The notes beneath the pieces were generated by a model, which was given only the letters and a program-made list of their open reading frames with translations, searched no databases and was not told where the DNA came from. Below, piece by piece: positions 4,676-64,000 of a stretch of DNA of 64,000 nt. This DNA comes from Chthoniobacterales bacterium (GTDB lineage: Bacteria > Verrucomicrobiota > Verrucomicrobiia > Chthoniobacterales > UBA10450). Position numbers and translations under genes: made by a program. The stretch is taken from NCBI GenBank assembly GCA_038237805.1, contig JBBRYI010000003.1, forward strand, positions 183,594-247,593. Direction: 5' to 3'. Position 1 is the stretch's first letter; the number at the start of each line of letters is the position of its first letter.

Positions 4676-5686
4676 TCAATGGGTCGTATCGTCGATCAGC
4701 GCCAACTCTGCTTCTACCATTTCGCGGACAAGCTGCTGAAAGTTTTTGGACGGTTTCCAGCCGAGTGTCTGCGCGATTTTTTTCGAATTACCTACGAGCA
4801 TCGTAGGGTCCGCAATTCGATCGAAAGCGGCATCGTGCTTCACAAATTCTTCCCACGACAAATTTACTGTCGCGAAAGCAGCTTCCACAAAATCGCGGAC
4901 GGAATGACTCTCGCCCGTCGCTACAACATAGTCGTCCGGTTTATTGTGCTGCAGCATTAGCCACATCGCGCGGACGTAGTCCTGTGCGTGTCCCCAATCG
5001 CGCCGGTTACCCAAATTCCCGAGCGCTACTTCGCGATCGAGCCCCCGTGCAATGCGCGCCGCCGCGCGCGAGATCTTGCGTGTGACAAAATTTTCGCCGC
5101 GCCGCGGCGATTCGTGGTTATAGAGAATGCCGTTGCAAACAAACAGGCTGTAAGAACGGCGATAAACTTGTGCGAGTTGCGTCGCAAATGCTTTTGCGCA
5201 GCCGTATGGACTCACTGGGCGTAGCGCTGTTTCCTCAGTCTGCGGCGTTTCGGTGGCATCTCCGAAAACCTCTGAGCTGGCTGCGTGATAAAATCTAATC
5301 GGCTGCCGTTGATCGCGCGTTATCTCGAGCAAACGCAGTGTTGCCATAGCGACTTCTTCGCAAGTTGATTCCGGAATTTCAAAACTGAGTCCGACGTGGC
5401 TTTGACCGGCAAGATGATAAACTTCGTGCGGTCGCACTTCGGCAAAGATTCTTCTCAACGTGGTACCGTCGGAAAGATCGCCGTAGTGCAAAAATAATCG
5501 ACGCTCATAGATATTTTCGTCGCGTCGCAGATGCTCGATGCGCGAGCGCAAAAGATTACTCGTTCGCCTAACGACACCATGGACCTCGTAACCTTTTTCC
5601 AAAAGCAGCTCAGTCAGGTAGGAACCATCCTGACCGGTGATTCCCGTGATCAATGCAACTTTTGTCTCGTCGTTATCGGTTGTCAT
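4676..5686 (-). CDS. gmd: GDP-mannose 4,6-dehydratase
   Basis: Contains ALITGITGQDGSYLTELLLEKGYEVHGVVRRTS plus YGCAKAF (the YxxxK motif). Start set at MTTDNDE (5684-5686). Confidence 0.9.
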   Translation of the reverse strand: MTTDNDETKVALITGITGQDGSYLTELLLEKGYEVHGVVRRTSNLLRSRIEHLRRDENIYERRLFLHYGDLSDGTTLRRIFAEVRPHEVYHLAGQSHVGLSFEIPESTCEEVAMATLRLLEITRDQRQPIRFYHAASSEVFGDATETPQTEETALRPVSPYGCAKAFATQLAQVYRRSYSLFVCNGILYNHESPRRGENFVTRKISRAAARIARGLDREVALGNLGNRRDWGHAQDYVRAMWLMLQHNKPDDYVVATGESHSVRDFVEAAFATVNLSWEEFVKHDAAFDRIADPTMLVGNSKKIAQTLGWKPSKNFQQLVREMVEAELALIDDTTH

Positions 5687-5738
5687 CAATCGTTCCCAAC
5701 ATGCTACGAAGCTCGGCCTCTGCACAAGGTCGAATGAT

Positions 5739-5765
5739 GTAGCGGCGCTTATGCCAGGCGGCGGA
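5739..5765. repeat. Degenerate REP-like element
   Basis: The sequence gtagcggcgcttatgccaggcggcgg is close to the 2140 copy but has a decayed stem. It sits in the gmd/wzm divergent intergenic region. Confidence 0.4.
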
Positions 5766-5817
5766 AGATTATGCTTCCATTGTGTGGTGGCGGGATTGTT
5801 GCTACAATCGCATCTGC

Positions 5818-6648
5818 ATGTCCCACGAAGTCACTGAGCTCATCATCGAAGCCGGCCATACCGAGCGCAATTACTGGCGTGATCTATTCCGGTATCGCGA
5901 GCTTTTTTATTTTCTTGCCTGGCGCGACGTCCTCGTTCGCTACAAACAAACCGTCATCGGCGTTCTTTGGGCCGTCTTGCGTCCGCTGCTCACGATGGTT
6001 GTGTTTACGTTCGTCTTCAGCCGCATCGCGAAGTTACCTGCGGAAGGCGTGCCTTATCCGGTGATGGTTTTTGCCGCCATGCTTCCGTGGCAATTGTTCG
6101 CCACCTCACTCACGGAAGGCAGTGGCAGCCTTATCAATAATTCCAACCTCATCTCGAAAGTCTATTTTCCGCGTCTTATTGTTCCCGCAAGTTCCGTCAT
6201 CGTTTCCTTTGTCGATTTTGCCATCTCCATGGTGCTGCTCGGAATACTGATGGTCATCTATCGCGTTTGGCCCGGCTGGACGCTCCTGACGCTTCCAATC
6301 TTCACCGCTCTCGCGCTGCTCGCCTCCGCTGGCGCCGGTATCTGGCTCGCTGCGCTGAATGTGAAGTATCGCGATTTTCGCTACGTCGTGCCGTTCATCG
6401 TTCAGTTTGGTCTCTACATCTCACCCGTCGGTTTCAGCAGCTCCATTGTTCCTGCGAAATGGCGTCTGCTTTATTCGTTCAATCCGATGGTTGGCGTAAT
6501 TGATGGTTTCCGCTGGGGCATCTCCGGGGGTAACACCGCGTTTCCGACTCAAAGTCTCGAGATTTCGCTCATTACTACTGCCATCCTTCTCTTCACCGGC
6601 ATTTGGTATTTCCGTAAAACCGAGCGCACCTTCGCGGACGTCATCTGA
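5818..6648 (+). CDS. wzm: ABC-2 type polysaccharide/O-antigen export permease
   Basis: Contains RELFYFLAWRDVLVRYKQTVIGVLWAVLRPLL, typical of Wzm/KpsM/TagG, and about 6 TM segments. Start chosen at MSHEVTE (5818). Confidence 0.8.
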   Translation: MSHEVTELIIEAGHTERNYWRDLFRYRELFYFLAWRDVLVRYKQTVIGVLWAVLRPLLTMVVFTFVFSRIAKLPAEGVPYPVMVFAAMLPWQLFATSLTEGSGSLINNSNLISKVYFPRLIVPASSVIVSFVDFAISMVLLGILMVIYRVWPGWTLLTLPIFTALALLASAGAGIWLAALNVKYRDFRYVVPFIVQFGLYISPVGFSSSIVPAKWRLLYSFNPMVGVIDGFRWGISGGNTAFPTQSLEISLITTAILLFTGIWYFRKTERTFADVI

Positions 6649-6822
6649 TTAAAAGCTGAGATGTTAAACGGCTCAGCCGGCCGGTCACAGATTTCCGCTT
6701 TTCAGCTTTCAGCGTTTTCCGGGTCAGATTCCCAATCTTTTATCTTTTCAGTTTTCCGGGTTTTCCATATTGTCCCGATTCACAAGAAGCCATTCACCGG
6801 CCCTATGCCTTCATCATTCACC

Positions 6823-8820
6823 ATGAAAAATCCAACATTAACAATTCTGTTTGGTGCCGTTTGCATCTTCGCGAGTAAAGCAAACGCGGCATCAGTCATG
6901 ATTACTGGACAAACCGCGGGTCCGACGCCGTTCATTAGCGACCTTCAACTAAGCGCGAGTCCACCGGACTCGATCAAAAGTATAAAGTTTCAGATTGCTC
7001 CCAAGACGGGATCAGTCACACGCCCTCTGGCTGCAACCTACTCTAGCCAGTACCTGACGAAACGCGGTTACTACAATTCGCAGACGGGTGCAATTCTTTT
7101 GCCGGTGTTTGGTCTCTACGACAATTACGCCAACGCCGTTTTACTAACTTACGTGTTCACCGATAACTCGTCGCAGCAAGCGAGCGTCATGGTTACTACG
7201 CCCTTGTTTGCCGACCAATGCAGTTACAGCAATCCCACTGTTATACAAGCCAGGACGAATAGCACCACACTGAGCTACGATTACATTTTAACCAGGAACA
7301 GGTGTGGTAGCTTTTCGCCTGTTATTATTGATACTGATGGACGACTTCGCTGGGTCGGTACGGTAGGGTTCGCCGATTTGCCTGCAACGCTGTTCCAGAA
7401 CTCGATCTATATTGGCCACGGGCCAGTACTTTATCGCATGGAACTCGACGGCACATTTGCTGTCCTGCGAGATTACAGTAGCGGTGGGGTCATTAATTTT
7501 CACCACAACATCGATTTAGGTAAACGCGGGCTCATAGTAGATGTAGACACTCCCGCACAGGTTGAAGCTACGAACATGGAAATCGATGGTCTGGGCAATA
7601 TTCTAAAGACATGGAACCTGGCTAACATTATTACCGCTGCCATGACCGCTGGAGGCGATGACGCAACTCAGTTCGTCAAGCCCTCGCCCAATGACTGGTT
7701 TCACAACAACGCTACCACGTACAAAAAATCTGATGACTCATTGCTCGTTTCCAGCCGTGAAAATTTCGTTATCGCACTGGATTACACAAGCGGCGCCATT
7801 AAGTGGATTTTGGGTGACGCCACCAAGCAATGGTACCAGTTTCAGTCGTTAAGAAACTTTGCGCTTACACTTGATACCAATACGCTTCCTCCCATTGGCG
7901 AACATGCTTTATCAATCACGAAGGATGACAACCTGTTACTTTTTGATAACGGCAGGAATAGTATAAATAACACGCCCCCGGGGGACAATCGCACCTACAG
8001 CGCTCCTCGTAAGTATCAGATAAACACTCAATCAAAGGTGGCAACGGAACTCTGGAACTACCCGAATAACCAGGCTCTGTACAGCGATATTTGTTCCAGT
8101 ATCTATGAAGACAGTCCACTGAATTATTTAATCGATTACGCCCACATAGTTAACATCAGCCCACCCGCCCTGTTTGCGGAGATCCTCGGTCTGGATGCAT
8201 CAGGGAACAAGATTTTCGATTATCGATATCCCACCGCGAGTTGTAACACCGCATATAACTCTATCCCGGTTCATTTGGAACAAGTCATGTTTAAGACGAT
8301 CGTTCCGCCTACCGCAGTCTCTCGTAAATCTCATGGATCGGCCGGGACGTTCGAAGTCCCATTGCCGCTGAGTGGCACAGCGGGCGTTGAATGCCGTTCC
8401 GGTCATGCTGACGGCAGCTACCAGGTGGTAGTAACTTTCGCCATTCCAGTGACAATTACGTCTGCGACGGTGGTCCCAGGCAGTGGCGCCACGGGGACCG
8501 TTGTAGGTGCTCCTAGTGTTGCCGGGGCTGAAGTAACTGTGGACCTCACAAACGTCGGTAACGCCCAAACGCTAACGGTAAATTTAGTTGGAGTAAACGA
8601 TGGCTCGAATACGGAAAACTTTTCCGTACCGATGAGTGTGCTTGTTGGCGACACGACCGGTAATGGCTCCGTCAATTCAATTGACATAAACCAGGTAAAA
8701 TCGCAATCGGGGACCGCCGTGACAGCTGCGAACTTCCGGGAAGACGTAACCGCAAGCGGAGCGATTAATAGCTCGGATATAACTTTAACCAAATCGAAAA
8801 CTGGAAGTGGCGTTCCTTAG
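6823..8820 (+). CDS. Secreted aryl-sulfotransferase (ASST)-like beta-propeller protein with C-terminal dockerin-like repeats, paralog 1
   Basis: Signal peptide MKNPTLTILFGAVCIFASKANA. Contains FHHNID, DWFHNNATTYKKSDDSLLVSSRENFVIALDY..G.IKWILGD and GEHALSIT.DDNLLLFDNG, which resemble my recollection of the AssT family. The tail GDTTGNGSVNSIDINQVK / ASGAINSSDITLTK resembles dockerin type I repeats. Start trimmed from 6661 to 6823. Confidence 0.55.
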   Translation: MKNPTLTILFGAVCIFASKANAASVMITGQTAGPTPFISDLQLSASPPDSIKSIKFQIAPKTGSVTRPLAATYSSQYLTKRGYYNSQTGAILLPVFGLYDNYANAVLLTYVFTDNSSQQASVMVTTPLFADQCSYSNPTVIQARTNSTTLSYDYILTRNRCGSFSPVIIDTDGRLRWVGTVGFADLPATLFQNSIYIGHGPVLYRMELDGTFAVLRDYSSGGVINFHHNIDLGKRGLIVDVDTPAQVEATNMEIDGLGNILKTWNLANIITAAMTAGGDDATQFVKPSPNDWFHNNATTYKKSDDSLLVSSRENFVIALDYTSGAIKWILGDATKQWYQFQSLRNFALTLDTNTLPPIGEHALSITKDDNLLLFDNGRNSINNTPPGDNRTYSAPRKYQINTQSKVATELWNYPNNQALYSDICSSIYEDSPLNYLIDYAHIVNISPPALFAEILGLDASGNKIFDYRYPTASCNTAYNSIPVHLEQVMFKTIVPPTAVSRKSHGSAGTFEVPLPLSGTAGVECRSGHADGSYQVVVTFAIPVTITSATVVPGSGATGTVVGAPSVAGAEVTVDLTNVGNAQTLTVNLVGVNDGSNTENFSVPMSVLVGDTTGNGSVNSIDINQVKSQSGTAVTAANFREDVTASGAINSSDITLTKSKTGSGVP

Positions 8821-9376: not shown

Positions 9377-11419
9377 ATGAAAAATGTAATAGCAGCGATT
9401 CTTTTTACCGCGACCTGTTTCCTGGCGGGGACAGTCAACGCCGGATCGGTTATGATTACTGGACAAACCGCGGGTCCGACGCCGTTCATTAGCGACCTTC
9501 AACTAAGCGCCAGTCCACCGAACTCGATCAAAAGTATAAAGTTTCAGATTGCTCCAAAGACGGGATCAGTCACACGACCTCTGGCTGCTACTTACACGAG
9601 CGAATATTTGAAGAGGCGGGGCTACTACAATTCGCAGACGGGTGCAATTCTTTTGCCGGTGTTTGGTCTCTACGACAATTACGCTAACGCCGTTTTACTA
9701 ACTTACGTGTTCACCGATAACTCGTCACAACAGGCCGGCGTTGTAGTTAGCACGTCTGCGTTTAACGATACATGCAGTTACAGCCATCCAACCGTGATAC
9801 AAGCCAGGACCAATAGCACCGCGCTGAGCTATGATTACATTCTGTTGAAGAATAAGTGCGGCAGCTTTTCGCCGATTATTATTGATAGCGACGGGTGGGT
9901 TCGTTGGGTTGGGGCGGCCGGGGTCACTGATTTTCCAGCCAGGCTGTACCAGAACTCGATCTATCTCGGCCACGGTCCACTGCTTTATCGCCTAGAGCTC
10001 GATGGGACCTACGCCATGTTGCGAGACTATAGCAGCGATGGAGTGGCTGATTTTCATCACAACATCGATTTGGGCAAACGCGGCCTCATCGTAGAAGTAG
10101 ACACTCCGGCGTACACTGAGTCTGTAAACATGGAAATAGATGGTTTGGGCAATATTCTAAAGACATGGAACCTGGCTGCCATCATTACTGCTGCAATGAC
10201 CGGCGCAGGCGATGATGCAAGCCAGTTCGTCAAGCCCGCTCCCAACGACTGGTTTCATAATAACGCGGTCACGTATAAAAAATCCGATGACTCACTGCTT
10301 GTATCCAGCCGTGAGAATTTCGTGATTGCTCTTGATTATGCGACCGGTGCTATCAAGTGGATTTTGGGTGACAATACCAAGCAATGGTACCAGTTCCAAT
10401 CGTTAAGGAACTTTGCGCTTACGCTCGATACTAATACGCTTCCGCCGATCGGCGAGCATGCTTTGTCGATCACGACAGATGACAACTTGTTACTGTTTGA
10501 TAACGGGAGAAGCAGTCTGAATCACACCCCGCCGGGGGCGGACCGCACCTATAGCGCTCCTCGCAAATATCAGATCAACACGCAATCGAAGGTGGCGACG
10601 GAGTTATGGAACTTCCCGAACGGTCAGGCTTTCTACAGCCCGTTCTGTTCAAGCATATATGAGGATGCCCCCTTAAATTACTTAGTCCTCTACTCTATTC
10701 TTACTAACCCAGCGCCACCGCCGCCGCAGTTTGCGGAGGTTCTGGGCTTAGAGGCATCTGGCGCTAAAGTGTTTGATTATCGCTACCCTAATATGGGTTG
10801 TGACGCCGCTTGGAATGGTCTGCCGATTCACCTCGAGCAGGTTATGTTTACCACGATCGTTCAACCTACCGCGGTCTCTCGCAAGGATCATGGATTGTCC
10901 GGAATATTCGACATTCCAATGCCCTTGACTGGCAACTCAGGCGTTGAATGTCGTTCCGGCGGTGCTGACGGCAGCTATCAGCTCGTAGTTACTTTCGCCA
11001 GTCCGGTGACTATTACGACCGCCACTGCAACGTCCGACAGCGGTGGAACAGCGTCCGTTGTAGGCACGCCTGTCGTAGCCGGTAATCAAGTGATTGTGAA
11101 CCTCACAAACGTCAGTAACGCGCAAACGCTGACGGTAAATTTAATTGGAGTAAACGATGGCTCGAACACGGAAAACTTTTCCGTGCCGATGAGTGTGCTT
11201 GTCGGTGACACGACCGGTAATGGCTCCGTCAATTCAAGTGACATAATCCAGGTAAAATCGCAATCGGGCGCCGCAGTGACAGCTGCCAACTTCCGGGAGG
11301 ACGTAACCGCAAACGGAGCGATTAATAGCTCGGATATAACTTTAACCAAATCTAAAACTGGAAGTGGCGTTCCTGCGAAACAAGCATCACTTAGGAATCG
11401 TAACCAAGCTAACAGGTGA
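9377..11419 (+). CDS. Secreted ASST-like beta-propeller protein with dockerin-like repeats, paralog 2
   Basis: Signal peptide MKNVIAAILFTATCFLAGTVNA. By eye it is about four-fifths identical to paralog 1 along its full length and carries the same motifs. It has a 13-aa longer C-terminus. Confidence 0.55.
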   Translation: MKNVIAAILFTATCFLAGTVNAGSVMITGQTAGPTPFISDLQLSASPPNSIKSIKFQIAPKTGSVTRPLAATYTSEYLKRRGYYNSQTGAILLPVFGLYDNYANAVLLTYVFTDNSSQQAGVVVSTSAFNDTCSYSHPTVIQARTNSTALSYDYILLKNKCGSFSPIIIDSDGWVRWVGAAGVTDFPARLYQNSIYLGHGPLLYRLELDGTYAMLRDYSSDGVADFHHNIDLGKRGLIVEVDTPAYTESVNMEIDGLGNILKTWNLAAIITAAMTGAGDDASQFVKPAPNDWFHNNAVTYKKSDDSLLVSSRENFVIALDYATGAIKWILGDNTKQWYQFQSLRNFALTLDTNTLPPIGEHALSITTDDNLLLFDNGRSSLNHTPPGADRTYSAPRKYQINTQSKVATELWNFPNGQAFYSPFCSSIYEDAPLNYLVLYSILTNPAPPPPQFAEVLGLEASGAKVFDYRYPNMGCDAAWNGLPIHLEQVMFTTIVQPTAVSRKDHGLSGIFDIPMPLTGNSGVECRSGGADGSYQLVVTFASPVTITTATATSDSGGTASVVGTPVVAGNQVIVNLTNVSNAQTLTVNLIGVNDGSNTENFSVPMSVLVGDTTGNGSVNSSDIIQVKSQSGAAVTAANFREDVTANGAINSSDITLTKSKTGSGVPAKQASLRNRNQANR

Positions 11420-45587: not shown

Positions 45588-45612
45588 TCCAGAGAAACGT
45601 TTCATTGCGCCT

Positions 45613-46902: not shown

Positions 46903-47195
46903 TTCGTGTCGTGCTTCCGCATCATTTGCGCACGCTCGCGCGCGTCGGTGACGAAGTGCGGCTAAAGCTCGAAGGCAAGATCACGCCGCGAACGATTCTC
47001 GACGCGCTCGAAAGCGAATATCCAATGCTGCGCGGAACGATTCGCGACCACACCGCGCAACAACGCCGACCACTCGTTAGGTTCTTTGCCTGCGGCGAAG
47101 ATGTATCGCATGAATCGCCCGATACGGCCTTGCCCGATGCAATCGCGAAGGGAGTCGAACCATTTTTCATCATGGGCGCCATCGCTGGGGGCTAG
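46899..47195 (+). CDS. MoaD/ThiS-like ubiquitin-fold protein ending in Gly-Gly
   Basis: 98 aa, [14 protein letters not shown]...[14 protein letters not shown] overlap with the Asp-box gene. Confidence 0.6.
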
Positions 47196-47308
47196 AGGCC
47201 TTAACGATAGCGGTCTTCTCGCACTACGGACACAAAGGACGCCAAGGACCCGAAGTTTTAAAATAAACTTAGTGAACCTTCGCGACCTTTGTGCGAGGTC
47301 ATCGACTA

Positions 47309-47743
47309 ATGAGCAAGTCATTTGAAAGCTCGCGCGCTCCTGAACCGGTCGGCGCATTTCCTCACGCAAAGCGCGTCGGCAATTTTTTATTCCTTTCCGG
47401 CATTGGCCCGCGCGTGCGCGGCAGCAAGGAAATTCCTGGCGTCACACTTGATTCGTTAGGCAATATCGTGAGCTACGATATCGAGAAACAATGTCGCGCA
47501 GTGTTCGAAAATGTGAAGCTCGTCCTGGAAGATGCTGGTGCGAGTTGGAATGACATGGTCGACGTGACCGTCTTTCTCACGAACATGAAGAACGATTTCT
47601 CGATTTATAACAAACTGTACGCGGAACATTTCGCTGGTCCCGACAAACCAAACCCGACGCGGACGACAGTTGAAATCACCGCGCTGCCGACACCGATCGC
47701 GATCGAACTCAAGGTGATCGCGCACACAGGTAGGGGCAATTGA
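47309..47743 (+). CDS. RidA/YjgF-family deaminase (candidate 2-aminomuconate deaminase)
   Basis: Contains APEPVGAFPHAKRVGNFLFLSGIGP...RTTVEI..LP. The specific role is inferred from context. Confidence 0.8.
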   Translation: MSKSFESSRAPEPVGAFPHAKRVGNFLFLSGIGPRVRGSKEIPGVTLDSLGNIVSYDIEKQCRAVFENVKLVLEDAGASWNDMVDVTVFLTNMKNDFSIYNKLYAEHFAGPDKPNPTRTTVEITALPTPIAIELKVIAHTGRGN

Positions 47744-47766
47744 CCTCAATCGCTGCGGGTTTTCGG

Positions 47767-48234
47767 ATGAACGCAAGGCCCTTTCGCCTCATCGCAACCG
47801 ATCACACTGGTTTCACCGTCGCGAACATCGAGCGGTCTCTGGCCTTTTGGCGCGATGTTCTCGGCTTCGAACTTTCGCATCGCGCGCATCACACCGGCGA
47901 TCTCGCCGGCGAAGTGACCGGCGTACCCGGCGCTGAGATTTCCATCGCTGTTCTCAATGGTTACGGACACAAGATCGAATTGTTGGAGTATCTCGCTCCA
48001 GCTAATCGAAAGCAGGTCGATCTCAGACCGTGCGATGTCGGTTCCGCTCACGTCGCGTTTACGGTAGAAAACCTCGACGCGGTGCTGAACAGAATTTCCG
48101 AGTCCGGATGGAAAGCAGCAGGCCAAGCTCAAACGCTTAAAACCGGTCCAAACGCTGGGAAGCGCGTGATCTACGTCCGCGATCCGGACGGCACAACGAT
48201 CGAGCTCATGCAGCCGCCGCCCGCTAAACATTGA
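47767..48234 (+). CDS. VOC-family (glyoxalase/bleomycin-resistance/dioxygenase fold) protein
   Basis: Contains HTGFTVANIERSLAFWRDVLGF...H.AF.V.NLD and DPDGTTIELMQ. An alternative TTG start at 47740 overlaps the RidA stop. Confidence 0.7.
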   Translation: MNARPFRLIATDHTGFTVANIERSLAFWRDVLGFELSHRAHHTGDLAGEVTGVPGAEISIAVLNGYGHKIELLEYLAPANRKQVDLRPCDVGSAHVAFTVENLDAVLNRISESGWKAAGQAQTLKTGPNAGKRVIYVRDPDGTTIELMQPPPAKH

Positions 48235-48243
48235 GTGCGCGCA

Positions 48244-48347
48244 AGGTGGATCGAGCAGTTAGGCCAGTCCGGCTCGGACCTCGATGTTAAATAATGTCGG
48301 CGAAGCCGGGTGACTTAGCATCGCCCGACGGAGCGACCGATCCACCT
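48244..48347. mobile_element. MITE-like element, 104 bp, 10-bp terminal inverted repeats AGGTGGATCG / CGATCCACCT
   Basis: Perfect TIRs at 48244-48253 and 48338-48347. Its left-end sequence recurs at 54290 and 55491. It is intergenic between the VOC gene and kynU. Confidence 0.5.
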
Positions 48348-48382
48348 TTGACGGACGCTCTCGCTGCGTGGAGCATTGCGCG

Positions 48383-49654
48383 ATGACTTTTTCCGCCGAC
48401 GAAGATTTCGCACGTCAACTCGATAGCGAGGATTCGCTCCGCGATTTTCGGGAAAAATTTCATCTCCCACCCGGCGAAGATGGCAAGCCGCTGATTTACC
48501 TCGCTGGAAACTCGTTAGGCTTGATGCCGAAATCGGCGAGAAAAATCGTCGAACAGGAATTGGACGACTGGGCGAAGCGCGGTGTCGATGCACACCTCGA
48601 AGCGGCGACACCATGGTACTCATATCACGAGACGTTGCGCGAGCCCGCGGCGCGACTCGTGGGCGCGCAGCCTAAGGAAGTCATCTGCATGAACAGCCTG
48701 ACGGTGAACCTGCACCTGATGATGGCGACGTTCTATCGGCCGACGGAATCACGCTTCAAAATCCTGATGGAAGAGCCGGCCTTCCCTTCCGACACATATG
48801 CGATCAAAACACAGATCGTTCATCACGGTTTTGGGCCTAACGAGGCGCTAATTCTCGCGCGACCCCGCAAAGGTGAGTTCACAGTTCGACAGGATGATAT
48901 CGAGGCGGCGATTGATAAGCATGCGGATCAGCTTGCTGTTGTCATGATTGGCGCCGTGAACTTTTTCACCGGTCAATTATTCGATATCGAAAAAATCACG
49001 TCCGCAGCGCAGAAGCGTGGCATCGCGGTCGGAATCGATCTCGCACATGCAGCCGGAAATGTTCCGCTGTCGCTACACGATTGGAACGTCGATTTCGCAG
49101 TGTGGTGTTCCTACAAATATCTGAACGCCGGCCCCGGCGCGGTCGCGGGCGCGTTCGTGCACGAGCGACACGCGACGAACCGAGAATTGCCGCGCCTGGC
49201 TGGTTGGTTCGGAAACGATCCAAAGACGCGGTTCCGTCTGCATCTCGAGCCTGAGTTTATTCCCGTTCCCTCCGCCGATGCGTGGCAGATCAGCAACCCG
49301 CCGATCTTTTCCATGGCGCCGTTACGGGCTTCGCTTGCGATTTTCGATCAAGCCGGCGGAATGAAAGCGTTGCGCTCGAAGTCGATAAAGCTAACAGGCT
49401 ACCTTCAATTTCTGATCGAGTCCGCCAGACATTCAAAGCTAACGGTCATCACGCCGCGCCACCCTAACGAGCGCGGCTGCCAGCTCTCGATCCTTGTTCA
49501 CGAACATCCGAAAGAGTTATTCGCGAAGCTCGACGCTGCGGGCGTGAAATGCGATTTTCGCGAACCGAACGTCATTCGCGCCGCGCCTACCCCTCTTTAC
49601 AACACGTTTCACGAAATCTGGCGCTTCGCGAAGATCCTGGCTGAGCATCAATAG
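48383..49654 (+). CDS. kynU: Kynureninase
   Basis: Contains IYLAGNSLGLMPK and the PLP-lysine region WCSYKYLNAGPGAVAG. Start trimmed to MTFSADE. Confidence 0.9.
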   Translation: MTFSADEDFARQLDSEDSLRDFREKFHLPPGEDGKPLIYLAGNSLGLMPKSARKIVEQELDDWAKRGVDAHLEAATPWYSYHETLREPAARLVGAQPKEVICMNSLTVNLHLMMATFYRPTESRFKILMEEPAFPSDTYAIKTQIVHHGFGPNEALILARPRKGEFTVRQDDIEAAIDKHADQLAVVMIGAVNFFTGQLFDIEKITSAAQKRGIAVGIDLAHAAGNVPLSLHDWNVDFAVWCSYKYLNAGPGAVAGAFVHERHATNRELPRLAGWFGNDPKTRFRLHLEPEFIPVPSADAWQISNPPIFSMAPLRASLAIFDQAGGMKALRSKSIKLTGYLQFLIESARHSKLTVITPRHPNERGCQLSILVHEHPKELFAKLDAAGVKCDFREPNVIRAAPTPLYNTFHEIWRFAKILAEHQ

Positions 49655-49665
49655 GGCAAAGACAA

Positions 49666-50424
49666 TTACGATTGGCTCGTCGGCCAGCGTTTTGGTGTGC
49701 GAATGAATAACGCGAGCGAACCAACATCCGGCTCGCGTTTGTAATATTCTCCATTGCGCGCCGTAATTTCCTGAACCAATCGAAAAGGGCCGGGCATCGT
49801 TGCTGTGTGCGGACGCGCGGCCGCCGCATTGTGAAATACAAGGTGGCCGCCGGGTTTAACCGCTTTTTTCCAGTGTTCATAATCGTTGAGCACTCCTTCA
49901 TAGGAATGATCGCCATCCACGAAGACTAAATCATAAAAATCTGCCTTGGCTTCGCTCGCAGCCGAGTGGCCGACAAGGAGGTTAACTTTATGCGCCAGCT
50001 CACTTTTCTTCAGGGCGATTTGAAGGAGCTCATCGTTTTGCGGCGCGATGTCAATCGACGTCACCATGGAATCCGCATCGCCCGCCACGGCGAGCAGGAA
50101 TGCGGAGCCACCATGACAACGACCGATCTCTAATATCTGCGCACCCGGTTTCGACCGCGCCAATCGAAACAAGTGCGCCGCTTCATCAAACTGTAATAAC
50201 AAGAGGCCCTTGTTGGTTGGGTTGGATACGAGCAGCCAATCGAGATCTTCGAAGTTGCGCTGCGGACGGTTGGGCAAGTTTGCGAACGAAAGGTTATTCC
50301 ACTGCCTCACCGCGTCGAAAGCCAGATTTGGGTGGCGCCGGATGAAAAACAAAATTAAACGCCGCAAATATTTGTGGAAAAAACGCATTTGTTCCGAGAG
50401 CTGCAATTCTATCCCAAGACTCAA
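49666..50424 (-). CDS. Class I SAM-dependent methyltransferase (Methyltransf_24-like)
   Basis: Contains ILEIGRCHGGSAFLLA and DLVFVDGDHSYEGVLNDYEHW...GGHLVFHN. Confidence 0.7.
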   Translation of the reverse strand: MSLGIELQLSEQMRFFHKYLRRLILFFIRRHPNLAFDAVRQWNNLSFANLPNRPQRNFEDLDWLLVSNPTNKGLLLLQFDEAAHLFRLARSKPGAQILEIGRCHGGSAFLLAVAGDADSMVTSIDIAPQNDELLQIALKKSELAHKVNLLVGHSAASEAKADFYDLVFVDGDHSYEGVLNDYEHWKKAVKPGGHLVFHNAAAARPHTATMPGPFRLVQEITARNGEYYKREPDVGSLALFIRTPKRWPTSQS

Positions 50425-50519
50425 GCCAAACTCGACAACGAAGCGGTGAAATTTTAATTATGCCGAGAATTTTTATCGGCAAATCCACCGGCTTAGGCCA
50501 AAAGCATCGTTAACCATCT

Positions 50520-50894
50520 ATGAAATACGTCATCATTATCGCGCGAGTTCTGCTCGGACTCGTATTCGTCGTCTTCGGCTCGAACGCCTTTTTGCATTTT
50601 ATCCCGGCGCCGCCAATGCAAGGCGACCCCGGTGCATTCATGGGCGCCCTCTTTCATAGCGGTTACATTTATCCGATCGCGGTCTTACAGGTCGTGGGCG
50701 GTCTTCTTCTGCTCCTCGGCGCGCGCTTCGTCGCACTCGGCCTCACCCTGCTCGGCCCGGTAATTGTGAACATCGTGCTCTACCACATCTTTCTCGATCG
50801 AAATGGTCTCCCGATAGCGATCGTCATCTCCATTCTCGCGCTCTTTCTTCTCTGGGTTTATCGCTACAAGTTCCCGGCCATTTTCCAACCATAA
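50520..50894 (+). CDS. Small 4-TM membrane protein (DoxX-like)
   Basis: 124 aa with four hydrophobic segments. The family call is tentative. Confidence 0.5.
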   Translation: MKYVIIIARVLLGLVFVVFGSNAFLHFIPAPPMQGDPGAFMGALFHSGYIYPIAVLQVVGGLLLLLGARFVALGLTLLGPVIVNIVLYHIFLDRNGLPIAIVISILALFLLWVYRYKFPAIFQP

Positions 50895-50980
50895 ACTCTT
50901 CGAGCGACTAGGAAGCCGTTGTCCGTTCTGGAGCGAAGTGCTTTAGAACGGTGACAATCCACTTAGGTTTATCTTTTCTC

Positions 50981-51388
50981 ATGAAGAACGTGATCCATGG
51001 CAGCTGTCTGTGTGGCGGTGTGCGGTTTGAAGTCGATCCTCCTTTCCTTCAGGCAAATCACTGCCACTGCGACCGCTGCCGCAAGCATTCCGGCACGGCC
51101 GTTTGCACGCAGACCCGAGTTTTGAAGGAAAACTTCCGTCTGCTGCAAGGGGCCGAGTTGATTAAAGTTTACGGAAAAGGCGAAGGGGCTGTAAAAGCAT
51201 TCTGCATGAACTGCGGCTCCAGTTTGTTTGGCGGTGATTGGCCAGACGGACCTCAAGTGTCGATTCGTATGGGAGCTTTCGACGATGATCCTGGCATCCG
51301 TCCTCAATTTCACACCTTTGTCGATTGTCGTGCCCCGTGGGACATGATCACAGACGATCTTCCGCAATATTCCGAGAGGCGAAAGTAA
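50981..51388 (+). CDS. GFA-family (CENP-V/glutathione-dependent formaldehyde-activating fold) protein
   Basis: Cys-rich Zn motifs: GSCLCGGVRFEV, CHCDRCRKHSG, FCMNCGSSLF. Confidence 0.8.
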   Translation: MKNVIHGSCLCGGVRFEVDPPFLQANHCHCDRCRKHSGTAVCTQTRVLKENFRLLQGAELIKVYGKGEGAVKAFCMNCGSSLFGGDWPDGPQVSIRMGAFDDDPGIRPQFHTFVDCRAPWDMITDDLPQYSERRK

Positions 51389-51458
51389 ACTCGGCAGCCG
51401 CCGTCTCGGTCTGATTGTTCGTGATACGCGCACAATCCGCGGTTAAGCATTCCGTTGA

Positions 51459-52784
51459 ATGGGGTCTAAATTTGTTCTCATCGGGAGTGGCCTCGCTGGA
51501 GGATTGCTCGCGGCGTATTTGGGAAAACGCGGATACAATGTCGATCTTTACGAGCGACGTGCTGATCCGCGCGAAGGCAATCTCGTCGGCGGACGCTCGA
51601 TCAATCTCGCGCTCTCAACGCGCGGAATTCATGCGCTCGAACAGCTCGGTCTTGCTGACGAAGTGTTGCGGCATGCGATCCCAATGCGCGGGCGCATGAT
51701 CCATGAAAAATCCGGCGGTCTCCACTTCGCGCCCTACGATGTCGATCCCAACAAATGCATCAACTCCATCGGACGCGCGGCACTTAATACCACTGTGATT
51801 GGGGCGGCACAGCGTCATTCGAACGTGCGCGTCCATTTCAATCATCGTTGCAACGATGTCGATTTTGAGTCGGCAACCGTTCAGCTCTTCAACACGTCAA
51901 CGTCGCAACCGCTTAAGGCATCTGGAGATGCGGTTATCGGTGTCGACGGCGCGTTTTCCGCCGTGCGGCAGTCGATGCGGAAGCAAATAAATGGTTTCAA
52001 TTACGACGAGAGCTATCTCGCGCACGGATACAAAGAACTCACCATCCCGCCTGCTCAGGATGGCTCGTGGCAAATGGAAAAGCACGCCCTCCACATTTGG
52101 CCGCGCAAAAGTTTCATGATGATCGCGCTGCCCAATCCCGACGGCTCGTTCACTTGCACGCTCTTCTGGGAATTCGAAGGGCCGCGAAGCTTCGCCACGA
52201 CCAAGACCAATGAAGAGGTCCGCCGATTCTTCGACGAAGAATTTCCCGACGCGGTCCCGCTTATGCCGGCACTGCTCGAAGACTTCCGCGAAAATCCTAC
52301 CGGCTCACTCGTGACGATTCGTTGCGCGCCATGGTTCTACAAAAACAAAGTCGCGCTCGTCGGTGACGCCGCGCACGCCGTCGTGCCGTTCTACGGCCAG
52401 GGAATGAACGCCGCCTTCGAAGACTGTGTCGTGTTCGATGAATGCCTCGCCGAAATGCCTAACGACCGCGAACGCGCCTTCAATCAATATTTCGTTAGGC
52501 GAAAAAAAAACACCGATGCGCTTGCTGATCTCGCGGTGCAAAACTTCATCGAGATGCGCGACAAAACTGCCTCACGCTCGTTCCGCGCGAAGAAAAAACT
52601 CGATCACTTTCTCGAAGCCGCGTTACCCGGCGTGTATTTACCGCTTTACGCGATGGTAACTTTCACGCGAATCCCCTACTGCGTCGCAGCCCGCCGCGCG
52701 CGACGGCAGGATCGCATCATCTACACGGGCCTCGTTGCGATCGTTTTGATCGTCCTGTTGTTGGCCGTTCGCTTGATCGCCTAA
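51459..52784 (+). CDS. kmo: Kynurenine 3-monooxygenase (FAD-dependent)
   Basis: Contains FVLIGSGLAGGLLA (FAD), INLALS.RG, LVGDAAHAVVPFYGQGMNAAFED and a C-terminal hydrophobic anchor. Confidence 0.85.
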   Translation: MGSKFVLIGSGLAGGLLAAYLGKRGYNVDLYERRADPREGNLVGGRSINLALSTRGIHALEQLGLADEVLRHAIPMRGRMIHEKSGGLHFAPYDVDPNKCINSIGRAALNTTVIGAAQRHSNVRVHFNHRCNDVDFESATVQLFNTSTSQPLKASGDAVIGVDGAFSAVRQSMRKQINGFNYDESYLAHGYKELTIPPAQDGSWQMEKHALHIWPRKSFMMIALPNPDGSFTCTLFWEFEGPRSFATTKTNEEVRRFFDEEFPDAVPLMPALLEDFRENPTGSLVTIRCAPWFYKNKVALVGDAAHAVVPFYGQGMNAAFEDCVVFDECLAEMPNDRERAFNQYFVRRKKNTDALADLAVQNFIEMRDKTASRSFRAKKKLDHFLEAALPGVYLPLYAMVTFTRIPYCVAARRARRQDRIIYTGLVAIVLIVLLLAVRLIA

Positions 52785-54268: not shown

Positions 54269-54289
54269 CCGTGATCCGCCTAACGACTT

Positions 54290-54320: not shown

Positions 54321-54473
54321 GTTTGCTGTACGGCGTGCTGTCCGAGCGCCCTAACGAATCGAACGACGACCAGGGCTCCGTAGGTTCGGCGATGAAGTCG
54401 AAACTTCGCGTCTTTGGTCTTTCTTTTCGATCTGCTTCGAGCGAGTGATTATCGCTCGGCGCGTTTGATCGCC

Positions 54474-54911
54474 ATGAAGAAAAATATCCTAATGAGTGGG
54501 CTCGCAGCTTGCCTTGTCTTCGCATTGGTCACCGCCGGTTGTCAGAAGACCGGCAAGCTTTCGCCGGAATTGCAAGCGCGGTTCCAGAAAGAAGTAATCG
54601 CGCATCGTGCTGACGATCTCACCTTTCGCCGCACACGACCCGCCGGCCAACGCGACTCCGGTTGGGACGAGAAGCGTGCCTCAATCATCGTCACGCACGA
54701 AAGTGTTTTTCTCCATGTAAACGGAAAACCACTCGTCGAAATCACAACGCGTTCTACTGGCTTCTACGAAGTCCATCGGGACCACGATCGGATCGCGCTG
54801 CGCGCTGGCAGCGGCAAATCCGCTTTGAGCTGGTCCTTTCGTCCCCCCGACGATGTCGACGCGTGGGCAAAAGACATCCGCGGCGTGATCAAGAACGCGA
54901 AGTCTCGTTAG
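54474..54911 (+). CDS. Hypothetical lipoprotein
   Basis: MKKNILMSGLAACLVFALVTAGC contains a lipobox. The stop TAG is embedded in a TCGTTAGGC motif. Confidence 0.5.
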   Translation: MKKNILMSGLAACLVFALVTAGCQKTGKLSPELQARFQKEVIAHRADDLTFRRTRPAGQRDSGWDEKRASIIVTHESVFLHVNGKPLVEITTRSTGFYEVHRDHDRIALRAGSGKSALSWSFRPPDDVDAWAKDIRGVIKNAKSR

Positions 54912-54970
54912 GCGACGCTGATCGCTTGACCTCTTTGCGCTTGGATGCCGCGAGGCTACACTGCCAGCGC

Positions 54971-55998: not shown

Positions 55999-56105
55999 CC
56001 CGCCCGCCGGGGAAACGAGCGGCGGCACTAATTATTACTCGTTAGGCGAATACACAGCAGGCCACAAGCGATCCCGCACCTGCATCGCACCGCTCACACC
56101 GCTCG

Positions 56106-56696
56106 TTAGGCGGCGATGCGGAACTTCCGAGACAGTGCAGCAAGGACGACAAGCGAGATCCCCAAAAAAACGACAGCAGAGCCGTTTTCAGGGACGGCGA
56201 CGGCTGAGGTCGACGCGGTGATGAACGCAAACGAAAAATTATTACCAGTACCCTGAAGGGCAAAGGTTCCCGCGGTGTTGTCGAAGCCAGTGATATGGGC
56301 GGTGCCTGTTCCCTGCAAGTCGAGCCCACCTGCCGTTACCGTGCCCGAAATCAAACTCGTGAGATCGAATGAATAAGTATTGCCTCCAAACGTGAACGTC
56401 CATACCGGAAGAACCGACGCAGTTAAAACCGCCGAAAGTCCGCTACCGGTGAATGAAAAGTTCTGGAAAGTCACCGGCGTAAAAATGGGGACGCCACTGT
56501 AGCTGCCCGTTTCGCCGATGGTACTGAACGGATTGTTGAAATTAATCGTGCTCGTTCCGCCGCTTTGACTGGCACTGCCGCTGCCCAGAAATGCTATGGA
56601 GCCGCTAATCGGCACGCCTTGCGTCTGGTGGCAAAAGGCCAAGGTCACGAGGCCGACAGATGCTATAGCGAAAAGTTTCTTCAGATGAAGTTTCAT
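56106..56696 (-). CDS. Secreted protein with a PEP-CTERM-like sorting tail (VPENGS variant)
   Basis: Signal peptide MKLHLKKLFAIASVGLVTLAF. C-terminus AVPENGSAVVFLGISLVVLAALSRKFR. The stop TAA is embedded in a TCGTTAGGC motif. Confidence 0.6.
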   Translation of the reverse strand: MKLHLKKLFAIASVGLVTLAFCHQTQGVPISGSIAFLGSGSASQSGGTSTINFNNPFSTIGETGSYSGVPIFTPVTFQNFSFTGSGLSAVLTASVLPVWTFTFGGNTYSFDLTSLISGTVTAGGLDLQGTGTAHITGFDNTAGTFALQGTGNNFSFAFITASTSAVAVPENGSAVVFLGISLVVLAALSRKFRIAA

Positions 56697-57118
56697 AGTG
56701 GGGATGATCGCATTTTCAACGGATATTTCCCGTAGAAACTGCATTACTCAGGAAATTATCACGTAGAAATAGATCGCAGCAAGACAATTATTTTATTTTT
56801 TGCGAGGGATCAAAGTGCACAGGTGGCAGACGCTTTTTCGCTCGCTCCCGGCACTGCGTCCAAGGAAACATGAGGCTCGATACGTCGACCGCCGCCGCAA
56901 TGCTGCGCTTTATATGTCGTGTGAAATCGATGGCCATCGCGCCGACCAACGGATTGCTGCATCGCCTCGTTAAAACCGTTGATTAGCCATTTGGTGGTGG
57001 AGCGAGATCCTGCAGAGGGATCGATCTCTGAATCTTCCTCGCGCAATATTTAACGGGTGGATACGCCTAATCGCCCACCTTAATCAGATCCAAGCGTTTC
57101 GTATTTTATCCTAAGCCG

Positions 57119-58261
57119 CTAAGGTGCAGCTAAGACGTAACCAAGGGGTAGCGTAGGCCCAAAGTTCCAACCATTAAAAACAGTATTACTTAAGTACCAC
57201 AATGCTGTTTGATGTGATCCCGGATTATAAAGCACAAAGTCTGGCTTGCCGTCGAGGTTAAAATCGGCTACTCCAACTAATTGATAACCACTTGCGATAA
57301 TTGGTCCCAAGGCGCTGCTGGAATAGGCAGCTCCTGACAAGTAGTAGATAGCTGATCTGTGAGTGCTCGGATTGAAAAGCGCAAGGTCGCGTTTGCCATC
57401 CCCGTTAAAATCTGCAGCCCCCGCAAACATGTAACCAGAAGCTAGCGTCGGTCCGTAGGCGGACCCGCTATAAGCGTTACCGTTAAGGTAATAAATCGCT
57501 GTTCCGCGTGTAGCCGAATTGTAGAGAAGATAATCCGGTTTTCCGTCCCCGTTAAAATCAGCAGTCGCTACTAACGTATACCCGACAGCAATCGTCGGCC
57601 CGAACGCTCCGCCAACCCGCGCTCCTCCCGATACGTACCAGATCGCGGTTTGACGCGTCCCAGGATTGAAGAGAGCATAGTCGGGCGCGCTATCGCCGTT
57701 GAAATCTGCCGTATCTACCAGGTTCCATCCAGCAGGCAGGCTCGGGCCATAAGCACCACCAATCTTCGTGTTATTATTCAGATACCATACAGCGGTTTGG
57801 TGTGTCGTTGGATTGTAAAGTACATAGTCGACCTTGCCGTCACCGTTGAAATCTGGCTGGGAGAGGCTTGCGGAGTACACCGCGGTCATTGTGTGACCAG
57901 CATCCATCGTCACACTCGTTAGGCGGCTCGTGTCCCAGTCCGAGCCGTCCCGCTGCCATTTTCGGAAAGTGTTGCCGTTTGTAGTCGGAGGAGCAGTTAA
58001 GCTGACGTTTGTGTTGGTGCTGTAGGTGCGCGTAAACTGAGTTATCCCGTCACCCGCACCATTATTATCATTGGGACTCACTTGAATATTTACCCCGTTG
58101 CTTGGATTCAATGACGCCACCGTGAGCGTTTGAGTTGCGGACACGACTAAATCGTAACCGATCACATCCAGATTGATGCCTTCTGGCGAAGTGGCTGTGA
58201 CATCCGAATATTGTCCCGCACAACTAAAGCATTTTGAACATAGGGCTGGGCTTGCGGACAA
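57119..58261 (-). CDS. FG-GAP/VCBS-repeat protein; probably the C-terminal part of a frameshifted larger gene
   Basis: Five or more repeats of the DFNGDGK(P/V)DY.L(Y/F)N..T..TA.WY type. Its first ~12 codons overlap the upstream ORF in another frame. Confidence 0.6.
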   Translation of the reverse strand: MSASPALCSKCFSCAGQYSDVTATSPEGINLDVIGYDLVVSATQTLTVASLNPSNGVNIQVSPNDNNGAGDGITQFTRTYSTNTNVSLTAPPTTNGNTFRKWQRDGSDWDTSRLTSVTMDAGHTMTAVYSASLSQPDFNGDGKVDYVLYNPTTHQTAVWYLNNNTKIGGAYGPSLPAGWNLVDTADFNGDSAPDYALFNPGTRQTAIWYVSGGARVGGAFGPTIAVGYTLVATADFNGDGKPDYLLYNSATRGTAIYYLNGNAYSGSAYGPTLASGYMFAGAADFNGDGKRDLALFNPSTHRSAIYYLSGAAYSSSALGPIIASGYQLVGVADFNLDGKPDFVLYNPGSHQTALWYLSNTVFNGWNFGPTLPLGYVLAAP

Positions 58262-62860: not shown

Positions 62861-62946
62861 CGCGTGTAGGGCGTCAACTGGTGGGGATCAGAAGGGGGTC
62901 GCATCTATATTTTTGAAATTTCATTTTCGAATAGCACGCGGCAGTT

Positions 62947-62969
62947 GTAGCGGCGTTTGTGTCAAACGC
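62947..62969. repeat. REP-like element; the 27 nt at 62943-62969 are identical to 59788-59814
   Basis: The sequence agttgtagcggcgtttgtgtcaaacgc is identical in both places. Confidence 0.55.
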
Positions 62970-62987
62970 GGACTACTAATTAGATTC

Positions 62988-63320
62988 TTATTCGGACTCA
63001 GGCTTGCTGATGTCAGGTGAAGTCATGTCAAAATAGATGGCGCGAGGAATCTCTGGCAGGTCCCGATGATGGCTCTCGAAAAACTTCCGCTGCTGATATT
63101 GATGAGGGCCAGAAGGGTACGCGCGAATCAAGGTTTCATCGGCGAAATTCCCAAAATGGCTGTACATGTTCGCCGGCCATGTGTAGGTGAACGGTGTCCT
63201 TCCTACGTACTCGTGGTTAATCTCAATGCGAGCTCCAGGAGGGTTCGATTCAAACCGCGTATAAACCGGGGCCGCGCACGAGCACAGCACTAACGAAACC
63301 AGAAGGAGAAACTTTTTCAC
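62988..63320 (-). CDS. Hypothetical lipoprotein (PEGA-like?)
   Basis: MKKFLLLVSLVLCSC contains a lipobox, followed by SNPPGARIEINHEYVGRTP. The GTG start overlaps the stop of the upstream gene. Confidence 0.45.
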   Translation of the reverse strand: MKKFLLLVSLVLCSCAAPVYTRFESNPPGARIEINHEYVGRTPFTYTWPANMYSHFGNFADETLIRAYPSGPHQYQQRKFFESHHRDLPEIPRAIYFDMTSPDISKPESE

Positions 63321-64000
63321 GACACATTTTGATCTCTTTGGTCCGGATTTTGCAATGTTCTATATTTCCACATTTCATTTTCGGACAGCACACGGTCGTG
63401 CAGCGCACGCGCGAAGCGCTCGGGCGCTCCTGTGTCCATGCGTAAATAAAGCGATGGCTCGATGAGTTCCAGCTCCATCAGCCAGTAGCTGCTGCCGTTA
63501 TTCGTACGCACAAAGTCGGCGCGGGCGTAAAGCGGGACGGTGCCGATCGCACGCATCGTTGCATTGCCAGCTTTGCGCAACGCATCTTCGATTTCGACGG
63601 CGCGGATGATTCCGCCGTGTTCTTCCTGCACCCGGAAGTCGGCGGGCTTCGGCAGCTTCAGGATGGTATGACTAAGCACGCCGTTGAAGTAGAAACACGA
63701 GAACTCGCCCTCGGTTGTGATCGCGGACAGGAATGGTTGCACGAGCAATGCACGGTCCGCGTAGTAAGCGCTGACTTCATCGGCTCGGCTACGCGCGGTG
63801 TGCGCGTCGAGACGAAAGGCACCGCTGGCATTCGCCCCAACAACCGGCTTGATCACGACTTCCGCCGTTCCGATCTCTTCGATTAGATCCGGCAACTCGT
63901 TAGGCGCTAGCCGCTCACGCCAGATCGTTGGCACGACAGGGACGCCGCGCTCAGCCAGGTCGCGAAGGTAAGTCTTGCGAATGTTCCAGCGGACGAGATC
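63317..64000 (-). CDS. ATP-grasp domain protein (RimK/GshB-like); N-terminus outside the window
   Basis: The reading frame stays open upstream of the ORF-track Met to the window edge (LVRWNIRKTYLRDLAERGVPVVPTIW...). Also contains VVIKPVVGANASG and LMELELIEPSL. Confidence 0.65.
   Translation of the reverse strand, partial: DLVRWNIRKTYLRDLAERGVPVVPTIWRERLAPNELPDLIEEIGTAEVVIKPVVGANASGAFRLDAHTARSRADEVSAYYADRALLVQPFLSAITTEGEFSCFYFNGVLSHTILKLPKPADFRVQEEHGGIIRAVEIEDALRKAGNATMRAIGTVPLYARADFVRTNNGSSYWLMELELIEPSLYLRMDTGAPERFARALHDRVLSENEMWKYRTLQNPDQRDQNVS

Follow-up and report, generated by a model that had tools for sequence, protein, structure and literature searches.

The nonanucleotide TCGTTAGGC occurs in 20 exact copies, 12 on the plus and 8 on the minus strand, in a 64-kb stretch of DNA from a Chthoniobacterales bacterium (Verrucomicrobiota; contig JBBRYI010000003.1), which is called the window below, and it recurs at high density in related genomes, where it is maintained at the DNA level and against codon preference. 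The length of 9–10 nucleotides, a density of about one copy per kb, the use of both orientations and of all permissible frames, the cost in codons, the conservation of individual sites, the sharing by a clade with lineage-specific alternatives and the absence from an island together match a genomic definition like that of a DNA uptake sequence (DUS). We therefore propose that TCGTTAGGC(G) may act as a lineage-specific self word read in the DNA itself, in the manner of DUS and of uptake signal sequences (USS), a proposal that we regard as about evenly poised.

A nine-nucleotide word is strongly over-represented in the window

Each of the 20 copies that an earlier reading of the window from its letters alone (the sequence-only reading) had placed proved exact in position and strand, and its rough expectation of about 0.5 copies was reproduced by two null models. 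Dinucleotide-preserving shuffles of the window (n = 100) held a mean of 0.51 copies of TCGTTAGGC and a maximum of 3, while an order-3 Markov model of the window predicted 0.46 copies, resulting in an observed/expected ratio of 43. A ratio near 1, at which the motif was to be given up, is contradicted by values far above 1 in both the window and its relatives. Under the same Markov model the 10-mer TCGTTAGGCG was found 15 times (0.18 expected) and the 12-mer TCGTTAGGCGAA 6 times (0.01 expected), and the most over-represented word at each length from 7 to 12 belonged to the TCGTTAGGC series. The base that follows the word is a purine in 18 of the 20 copies (G in 15, A in 3), which agrees with the purine, usually G, remarked on before, and A never precedes it. 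One-mismatch copies do exist, as had also been remarked, but their number (14 against about 13 expected) is that of the background, and position 9 is the only relaxed one, with 24 occurrences of TCGTTAGG.

The 25-base flanks on each side are unrelated among the window copies except for the pair at 33623 and 34546. Given that these two lie inside a direct repeat of about 150 nucleotides and share one duplication, the independent copies number 19. Fifteen of the 20 copies are located wholly inside open reading frames (ORFs), two overlap stop codons (54909-54911 and 56106-56108) and three are non-coding. Those inside ORFs are read as S-L-G (sense frame 0) or V-R-R (sense frame 1), and on the antisense strand as L-T (frame 1) or P-N-E/D (frame 2). 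The two remaining frames of TCGTTAGGC hold TAG or TAA, indicating that every possible frame is in use. The intergenic copies, the two stop-codon overlaps and these four readings are as the sequence-only reading had described them. Spacing in the window is very uneven, with zero copies between 5575 and 33622. None of the copies between 44.5 and 64 kb sits in a terminator-like site, and Rfam gave no match in the window, which has no tRNAs either.

The word is a property of a clade

Species-representative genomes (596 Gb) were scanned for TCGTTAGGCG followed after 30 to 60 nucleotides by a second TCGTTAGGCG, for which we calculated about 34 chance matches under equal base frequencies. The scan returned at least 119 stretches; all figures given here for related loci are among the matches listed, and the taxon names of the metagenome-assembled genomes (MAGs) are those of the record titles. 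Eighty-five of these stretches came from at least 37 MAGs titled Chthoniobacterales, Spartobacteria, Verrucomicrobiae or Verrucomicrobiota, which derive from many independent studies. In these 85 blocks (662.5 kb) we counted 799 copies, 621 of which were not the copies that had brought the locus to notice; the latter number corresponds to 0.94 per kb, and densities per MAG ranged from 0.25 to 2.0 per kb. Stretches from other taxa held the exact word as a lone pair or a tandem repeat only. With high density in at least 37 MAGs and lone pairs elsewhere, TCGTTAGGC is a property of a clade and not of one genome. Extrapolation from 0.61 copies per kb in the window core and 0.94 per kb in the related loci implies thousands of copies per Mb-scale genome. 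Among the matches listed, the locus closest to the window was L092, whose aldehyde dehydrogenase is 82% identical at the amino acid level. Long contigs that bear the word include CAVUNK010000009.1 (1.24 Mb) and CAWBXU010000002.1 (1.02 Mb), and the DASXEB assembly bears it too.

A scan of IMG/VR found no viral contig enriched for TCGTTAGGC, its six matches being each a lone pair or a tandem repeat. In the literature, TCGTTAGGC and GCCTAACGA as strings turned up in 129 papers, only within primers or oligonucleotides, and we found no relevant report on uptake sequences in Verrucomicrobia, Chthoniobacter or Gemmatimonad, nor on competence in connection with Udaeobacter or comEC. Three local arrangements came up among the scanned stretches. 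L044 contains a 23-nucleotide tandem repeat of five units (TCGTTAGGCGATTTGACGCGGAT, positions 2384-2484) that includes TCGTTAGGC, L051 (Anaerolineae) contains a heptamer array (GTTAGGC)n, and L094 (Chloroflexi) has two GTTAGGCGCCTAAC palindromes.

Copies arise by point mutation and are held at the DNA level

Information was confined to the nine core positions in both the 20 window copies and 615 related copies, with flanks at about 0 bits; the related loci showed only weak flank preferences for A at −2 and for purines at +1 to +3. A remnant of a very short dispersed repeat, one of the roles first offered for the word, is rejected, and with such flanks the copies do not hitch-hike in a longer repeat family. 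Orientation was balanced in the related loci (291:330) without overdispersion per locus (chi2 59.9, 72 df, p = 0.84), so that the lack of an obvious strand skew seen in the window (12 vs 8) extends to the clade. Copies were also split evenly between the G-rich and the C-rich strand (316:299), and orientation was not correlated with local GC skew at the locus level (Spearman 0.07, p = 0.55), a comparison that the sequence-only reading had called for, nor with the gene-strand excess of the related loci. A KOPS-type or other architecture-imparting sequence, which would have a strong polarity towards dif, was rejected on this absence of strand polarity.

Within the genes of the related loci, copies were found in sense orientation 153 times in frame 0 and 117 times in frame 1, and in antisense orientation 122 and 174 times, respectively (270 sense vs 296 antisense), with S-L-G as the most frequent single reading. 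While 71% of copies lie in genes, 233 are non-coding or at gene boundaries, representing 29% of copies in 17% of the DNA, and no positional tie to gene starts or ends was detected in these loci past this intergenic excess of about 1.7-fold. The codons imposed by the word are the rarest there, with TTA making up 3.5% of leucine codons, CTA 2.9% of leucine codons and AGG 3.7% of arginine codons, and 22–23% of all in-frame TTA, CTA and AGG codons of the related loci sit inside copies. Perfect copies outnumbered single-mismatch ones by 799 to 400. Among the mismatches, C>G at position 9 (72 cases), T>C at position 5 (45), G>T at position 8 (43) and C>T at position 2 (39) predominated, while positions 3 and 4 were almost invariant. 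A few direct pairs at short range (11–15 nucleotides) were seen, not clearly above expectation in dense loci.

Alignments then revealed how individual copies come and go. Between the window and the orthologous part of L092 (77% nucleotide identity) one copy was kept, while three copies private to the window or to L092 align to sequences that are 2–3 substitutions away, without indels. In a mutL codon alignment of the window and 11 relatives, copies were built by synonymous or conservative substitutions; the copy at 35997, for example, is common to L126 and L141, which have a lower word density, and encodes an invariant R-L-T-T peptide for which the other relatives have CTG or a further synonymous codon. 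When all alignable pairs of loci from different MAGs were compared, 214 of 351 non-ascertained copies (61%) were identical at the orthologous position, compared with 20% of control 9-mers, and at 70–80% overall identity about 60% of copies were conserved compared with about 10% of control 9-mers. Conservation in relatives, which had been proposed as a check of the motif, is thereby established. Taken together, the substitution-only alignments and the conservation of sites indicate that TCGTTAGGC arises by point mutation and, once formed, is retained much more strongly than the sequence around it. Its maintenance takes place at the DNA level, against codon preference, and the earlier view that selection acts on the DNA and not on a peptide motif holds for the window as well as for 662 kb of related loci.

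The word is missing from a lineage-variable island

The motif-free part of the window (5575-33622; 28,048 bp) has a GC content of 0.506, compared with 0.544 to its right, and coincides with a surface-polysaccharide cluster. Given the right-hand density of 0.61 independent copies per kb, 17.1 copies were expected in these 28 kb and none was present (P(0) = 4e-8). The genes in this stretch encode an ABC-2 exporter pair, at least six glycosyltransferases, methyltransferases, two arylsulfotransferases, a Wzy-like protein, a DegT aminotransferase, a UDP-galactopyranose mutase, an exosortase and a WecG-type transferase. To place the stretch among relatives we used a set of loci that had not been chosen by the word, for which metagenome contigs were scanned with the MutL of the window; it comprises 80 loci (835 kb) with MutL proteins 66–73% identical to that of the window. 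An exact look-up of the window MutL matched no protein on record. In 51 of these 80 mutL loci the P-II gene (glnB) follows mutL after about 100–190 nucleotides, whereas the two genes are 29.9 kb apart in the window, and a few relatives have other versions of the polysaccharide cluster, or gmd alone. The adjacency in 51 relatives identifies the motif-free stretch as a lineage-variable surface-polysaccharide island. As judged from this single island, TCGTTAGGC marks the conserved backbone and is missing from the variable island.

Sister lineages carry an unrelated word or none

The same 80 sister loci contained 37 copies of TCGTTAGGC, or 0.044 per kb. Their top word was an unrelated 10-mer, AAGATCGACA, with 230 copies against 4.2 expected. 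Twenty-one of the loci had it at 0.83 per kb, another 25 at 0.29 per kb and the other 34 at less than 0.2 per kb, with values of up to about 1 per kb; the loci that bear it include L129, L131-L136 and L138. Like TCGTTAGGC it was balanced in orientation (10:11 in L136, 9:9 in L138) and was located both in non-coding DNA and in genes, where several frames were used and the K-I-D reading was preferred. Two loci, L141 and L142, carry both TCGTTAGGC and AAGATCGACA at intermediate density. Another candidate, ACACGAAT in L130, was rejected as a third dispersed word because it belongs to a local repeat array. At about 5400-9900 of L130, downstream of mutL, modules of 10-nucleotide units (..ACCACGAAT / GACACGAAT..) lie about 160 nucleotides apart on both strands.

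A variant with a shorter core, (C)GTTAGGCR, was seen in two MAGs labelled Gemmatimonadaceae. In JBGAKW01 it takes the form [T/G]CGTTAGGC[R] at 1.3 per kb over four contigs (L069, L075, L108 and L117), and in DATNAM01 (L018) the form GTTAGGC[R], of which 8 kb contain 12 copies.

A candidate DNA uptake sequence and competing explanations

DUS and USS are words of 9–10 nucleotides with hundreds to thousands of copies per genome, about half of them in terminators, and a 2025 survey still described DNA uptake sequences only for Neisseriaceae and Pasteurellaceae. Like the DUS of Neisseriaceae, for instance GCCGTCTGAA, whose reader is the minor pilin ComP, TCGTTAGGC is a non-palindromic word of 9–10 nucleotides that occurs about once per kb, in both orientations and in genic as well as intergenic DNA, and like DUS it is common to many species of a clade, perhaps with variants in relatives, is kept up at the DNA level and, as far as the one island shows, is depleted in acquired DNA. 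It differs from DUS in its unrelated sequence, in belonging to the phylum Verrucomicrobiota, and in showing neither an excess of inverted pairs nor an association with terminators; moreover, a sister lineage has a wholly unrelated word and not a dialect 1–3 nucleotides away. With the USS of Pasteurellaceae (e.g. AAGTGCGGT) it shares a nine-nucleotide core, weak flanking preferences and a mostly genic location in all permissible frames. The perfect and one-mismatch copies stand at about 2:1 (799:400), which is also the ratio of the Haemophilus influenzae USS, and many sites are kept between species, as Bakkali et al. reportedly found in 2004 for USS at orthologous positions. By contrast, TCGTTAGGC is without the AT-rich flanking segments of USS, having only the A at −2 and the purines at +1 to +3, and without terminator pairing.

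If the word does act as an uptake sequence, a competence machine based on type IV pili would bind TCGTTAGGC preferentially through a surface DNA receptor, and fragments bearing it would enter the cell and recombine more frequently. Such an uptake bias, with or without selection for recombination among conspecifics, could then multiply the word to thousands of exact copies and preserve them in the core genome, with recently acquired DNA still free of them. That uptake is the process reading TCGTTAGGC, and that these bacteria are competent, we infer from these genomic features with as much doubt as confidence. The inspection for pilus genes covered about 0.7 Mb of motif-bearing DNA. In L080, a Chthoniobacterales MAG, two tandem genes of PilT/PilU-family type IVa pilus ATPases were found at 4113-6457 (423 and 422 bits, cutoff 319), and L050 encodes at about 170-3989 a PilB/GspE-type ATPase that scored 639 bits, below the cutoff of 676, and is adjoined in divergent orientation by a prepilin-type gene (RSSAFTLIELLVV...). 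Type IV pilus genes in motif-bearing loci are at most permissive for uptake.

Several observations weigh against an uptake sequence. The related loci were found through pairs of TCGTTAGGCG and were so ascertained by the word itself, which is why 178 ascertaining copies were excluded from the statistics, and their gene calls came from our own codon-usage-based ORF caller, a heuristic that called 83% of bases coding. Close inverted pairs are not enriched in the related loci, where 300 pairs of neighbouring copies lie on opposite strands and 15 of these are no more than 75 nucleotides apart, which is about chance, and the absence of terminator-like sites among the copies at 44.5–64 kb of the window points the same way. 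The uptake role put forward by the sequence-only reading accordingly agrees with most of the genomic features tested and fails for inverted repeats and terminators. Sister lineages carry the unrelated AAGATCGACA or no word, in place of a graded dialect of 1–3 nucleotides, and the (C)GTTAGGCR variant in MAGs labelled Gemmatimonadaceae needs cross-phylum transfer of a receptor or some other explanation. Finally, competence was reported for no Verrucomicrobia in the literature that we searched.

The word could instead be the site of an abundant sequence-specific chromosomal factor, such as a nucleoid organiser, the target of an orphan methyltransferase or a self-marker for defence, with each site under selection, which we judge unlikely. 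Such a factor would account for the strong conservation of individual sites across species and for the absence of the word from the island; the related core in a second phylum could represent a conserved or transferable DNA-binding module, and a difference in specificity between sister lineages is usual for specificity modules of the restriction-modification type. However, exact 9-mers that are indifferent to coding frame at the cost of the rarest codons are not readily explained by it, and neither is the lack of any relation to gene starts or ends beyond the intergenic excess of about 1.7-fold. No nucleoid or modification system known to us requires exact, non-palindromic 9-mers by the thousand in such positions, and restriction-modification targets are normally avoided and not enriched. 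The hyper-abundant cyanobacterial word HIP1 (GCGATCGC) also occurs in genes, is clade-specific and is maintained at the DNA level, like TCGTTAGGC; HIP1 is palindromic, whereas TCGTTAGGC is asymmetric.

A recombination or repair signal of the Chi type (e.g. GCTGGTGG of Escherichia coli), at which a RecBCD/AddAB-type helicase-nuclease switches from degradation to RecA loading and by which core DNA is marked as self, is distinctly unlikely in our view. Chi resembles TCGTTAGGC in being lineage-specific, over-represented, enriched in the core and missing from foreign DNA, and TCGTTAGGC could mark self DNA in the same way. Known Chi sites are 5–8 nucleotides long, few-fold over-represented and co-oriented with replication. 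By contrast, TCGTTAGGC is 9–10 nucleotides long and 40–80-fold over-represented, and it has no polarity, as seen from the orientation of 291:330, the absence of overdispersion among loci and the absence of a link to GC skew.

We consider it very unlikely that the word has no reader and is the product of a function-less, sequence-specific bias in mutation or repair, such as biased gene conversion or a very-short-patch-type repair of near-matches. The origin of copies by point substitution, the near-variants that are mostly single transitions or changes at position 9, and a lineage-specific word that another can replace are all in line with such a bias. However, it would need to affect each of the nine positions, while known biases of the very-short-patch type have less than 2-fold effects on 5-mers, and a resident bias should have begun to convert the 28-kb island. 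Remnants of short dispersed repeats or of miniature inverted-repeat transposable elements (MITEs), hitch-hikers in them, or a favoured peptide or codon pattern have a negligible probability and are refuted, even though 33623 and 34546 do sit in a duplicated segment and S-L-G is the commonest single reading, by flanks without information around 20 window and 615 related copies, by indel-free alignment of copies to non-motif sequence, and by the spread of copies over all four frames open to the word, on either strand and outside genes as well, at the price of the rarest codons. Repetitive extragenic palindromes, bacterial interspersed mosaic elements (REP/BIME) and MITEs share with TCGTTAGGC the many dispersed copies, but they are longer, usually form hairpins, are intergenic and have conserved flanks.

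Returning to an uptake sequence as the preferred reading, we suggest more tentatively that TCGTTAGGC and AAGATCGACA may be the first genuine DNA uptake sequences outside Proteobacteria, with a specificity that has perhaps been swapped wholesale between sister lineages (TCGTTAGGC, AAGATCGACA or none) and a related one in Gemmatimonadaceae, a reading that we hold to be slightly less likely than not. If this were true, the receptor would be modular or horizontally mobile, sequence-selective transformation would be widespread in soil bacteria, and the genomes would offer a handle on barriers to gene flow in soil, with the motif type serving as a label of the "mating group". An uptake signal here would extend the phenomenon to another phylum and to dozens of species of a dominant uncultured soil order. 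Lineages with TCGTTAGGC, AAGATCGACA, both or neither represent a natural experiment in which phylogenetic profiling could lead to the receptor, and a functional TCGTTAGGC could help to make these organisms transformable. The word also provides a strong marker with which these genomes can be binned and foreign DNA in them flagged. Should uptake not be its role, some other process preserves exact 9-mers by the thousand in the face of codon preference and deserves an explanation just as much.

Individual copies and neighbouring genes in the window

The gene content of the window is that of chromosomal housekeeping DNA. Its left end holds purA, an M23 peptidase gene, uppP, glnB (P-II) and gmd, followed by the long polysaccharide cluster, to the right of which lie mutL, an IscA-like gene, a HIT protein gene, kynurenine-pathway genes and others. 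The sole copy to the left of 33.6 kb is located in gmd, which encodes GDP-mannose dehydratase (5566-5574, minus strand; sense frame 1, V-V-R-R). At the other side of the island, the minus-strand copy at 33623-33631 falls in a non-coding fragment duplicated from the 3' end of mutL and is the paralogue of that at 34546-34554 (minus), which is read in mutL in sense frame 0 as TCG TTA GGC (S-L-G), the usual sequence of the relatives at this place being TCG CTG GCG (S-L-A). The second copy in mutL itself (35997-36005, plus) is antisense, the gene reading CGC CTA ACG ACT for its R-L-T-T.

Further to the right, a hypothetical gene of 528 amino acids carries a copy at 37547-37555 (minus; antisense frame 2, P-P-N-D), and a PMT_2 glycosyltransferase gene carries two plus-strand copies, at 41115-41123 (antisense frame 2, T-P-N-E) and 41239-41247 (antisense frame 1, C-L-T-S). 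A cluster of kynurenine-pathway type spans 42067-52784 and encodes a cyclase/formamidase-like protein, an aldehyde dehydrogenase, a RidA-family protein, a kynureninase and a flavin adenine dinucleotide (FAD) monooxygenase of the kynurenine 3-monooxygenase type. Its aldehyde dehydrogenase gene holds the minus-strand copy at 43932-43940 (antisense frame 2, P-P-N-E), which is the one kept at the orthologous position of L092 (77% nucleotide identity). S-L-G is read in sense frame 0 from three plus-strand copies, in a BNR/sortilin-like gene (46117-46125), in the RidA-family gene (47453-47461), where the L092 orthologue has TCCGATGGC by substitution without an indel, and in the kynureninase gene (48512-48520), which has another copy on the minus strand at 48835-48843 (antisense frame 2, G-P-N-E). 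The kynurenine-3-monooxygenase-like FAD gene contains the sole close inverted pair of the window, formed by 52457-52465 (minus; antisense frame 2) and 52492-52500 (plus; sense frame 1, F-V-R-R).

In the last 10 kb, a minus-strand copy at 54278-54286 is intergenic, 10 nucleotides past a DUF1326 gene, and the remaining copies are all on the plus strand. That at 54905-54913 overlaps the TAG stop (54909-54911) of the ORF at 54414-54911, that at 56039-56047 is intergenic, and that at 56103-56111 overlaps the TAA stop (56106-56108) of the minus-strand ORF at 56106-56744. An FG-GAP repeat gene (57916-57924; antisense frame 1, R-L-T-S) and an ATP-grasp-like gene (63897-63905; antisense frame 2, A-P-N-E) hold the final two.

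The surface-polysaccharide cluster as a whole, of O-antigen or exopolysaccharide type, covers about 30 kb (4676-34512 of the window) and has atypical codon-usage scores. Its two arylsulfotransferase (ASST) genes, at 6661-8820 and 9377-11419, are paralogous, and their pairing in a polysaccharide island suggests a sulfated surface glycan. At its mutL end, the direct repeat of about 150 nucleotides (33542-33695 and 34482-34618; 91–93% identical) comprises the 3' end of mutL together with the hairpin downstream of it, CTGCCGCTG...CAGCGGCAG. Between the repeats lies an insertion of 0.9 kb that codes for a DUF6036 nucleotidyltransferase-like protein (33684-34226 on the minus strand); the arrangement looks like a small insertion with target duplication.

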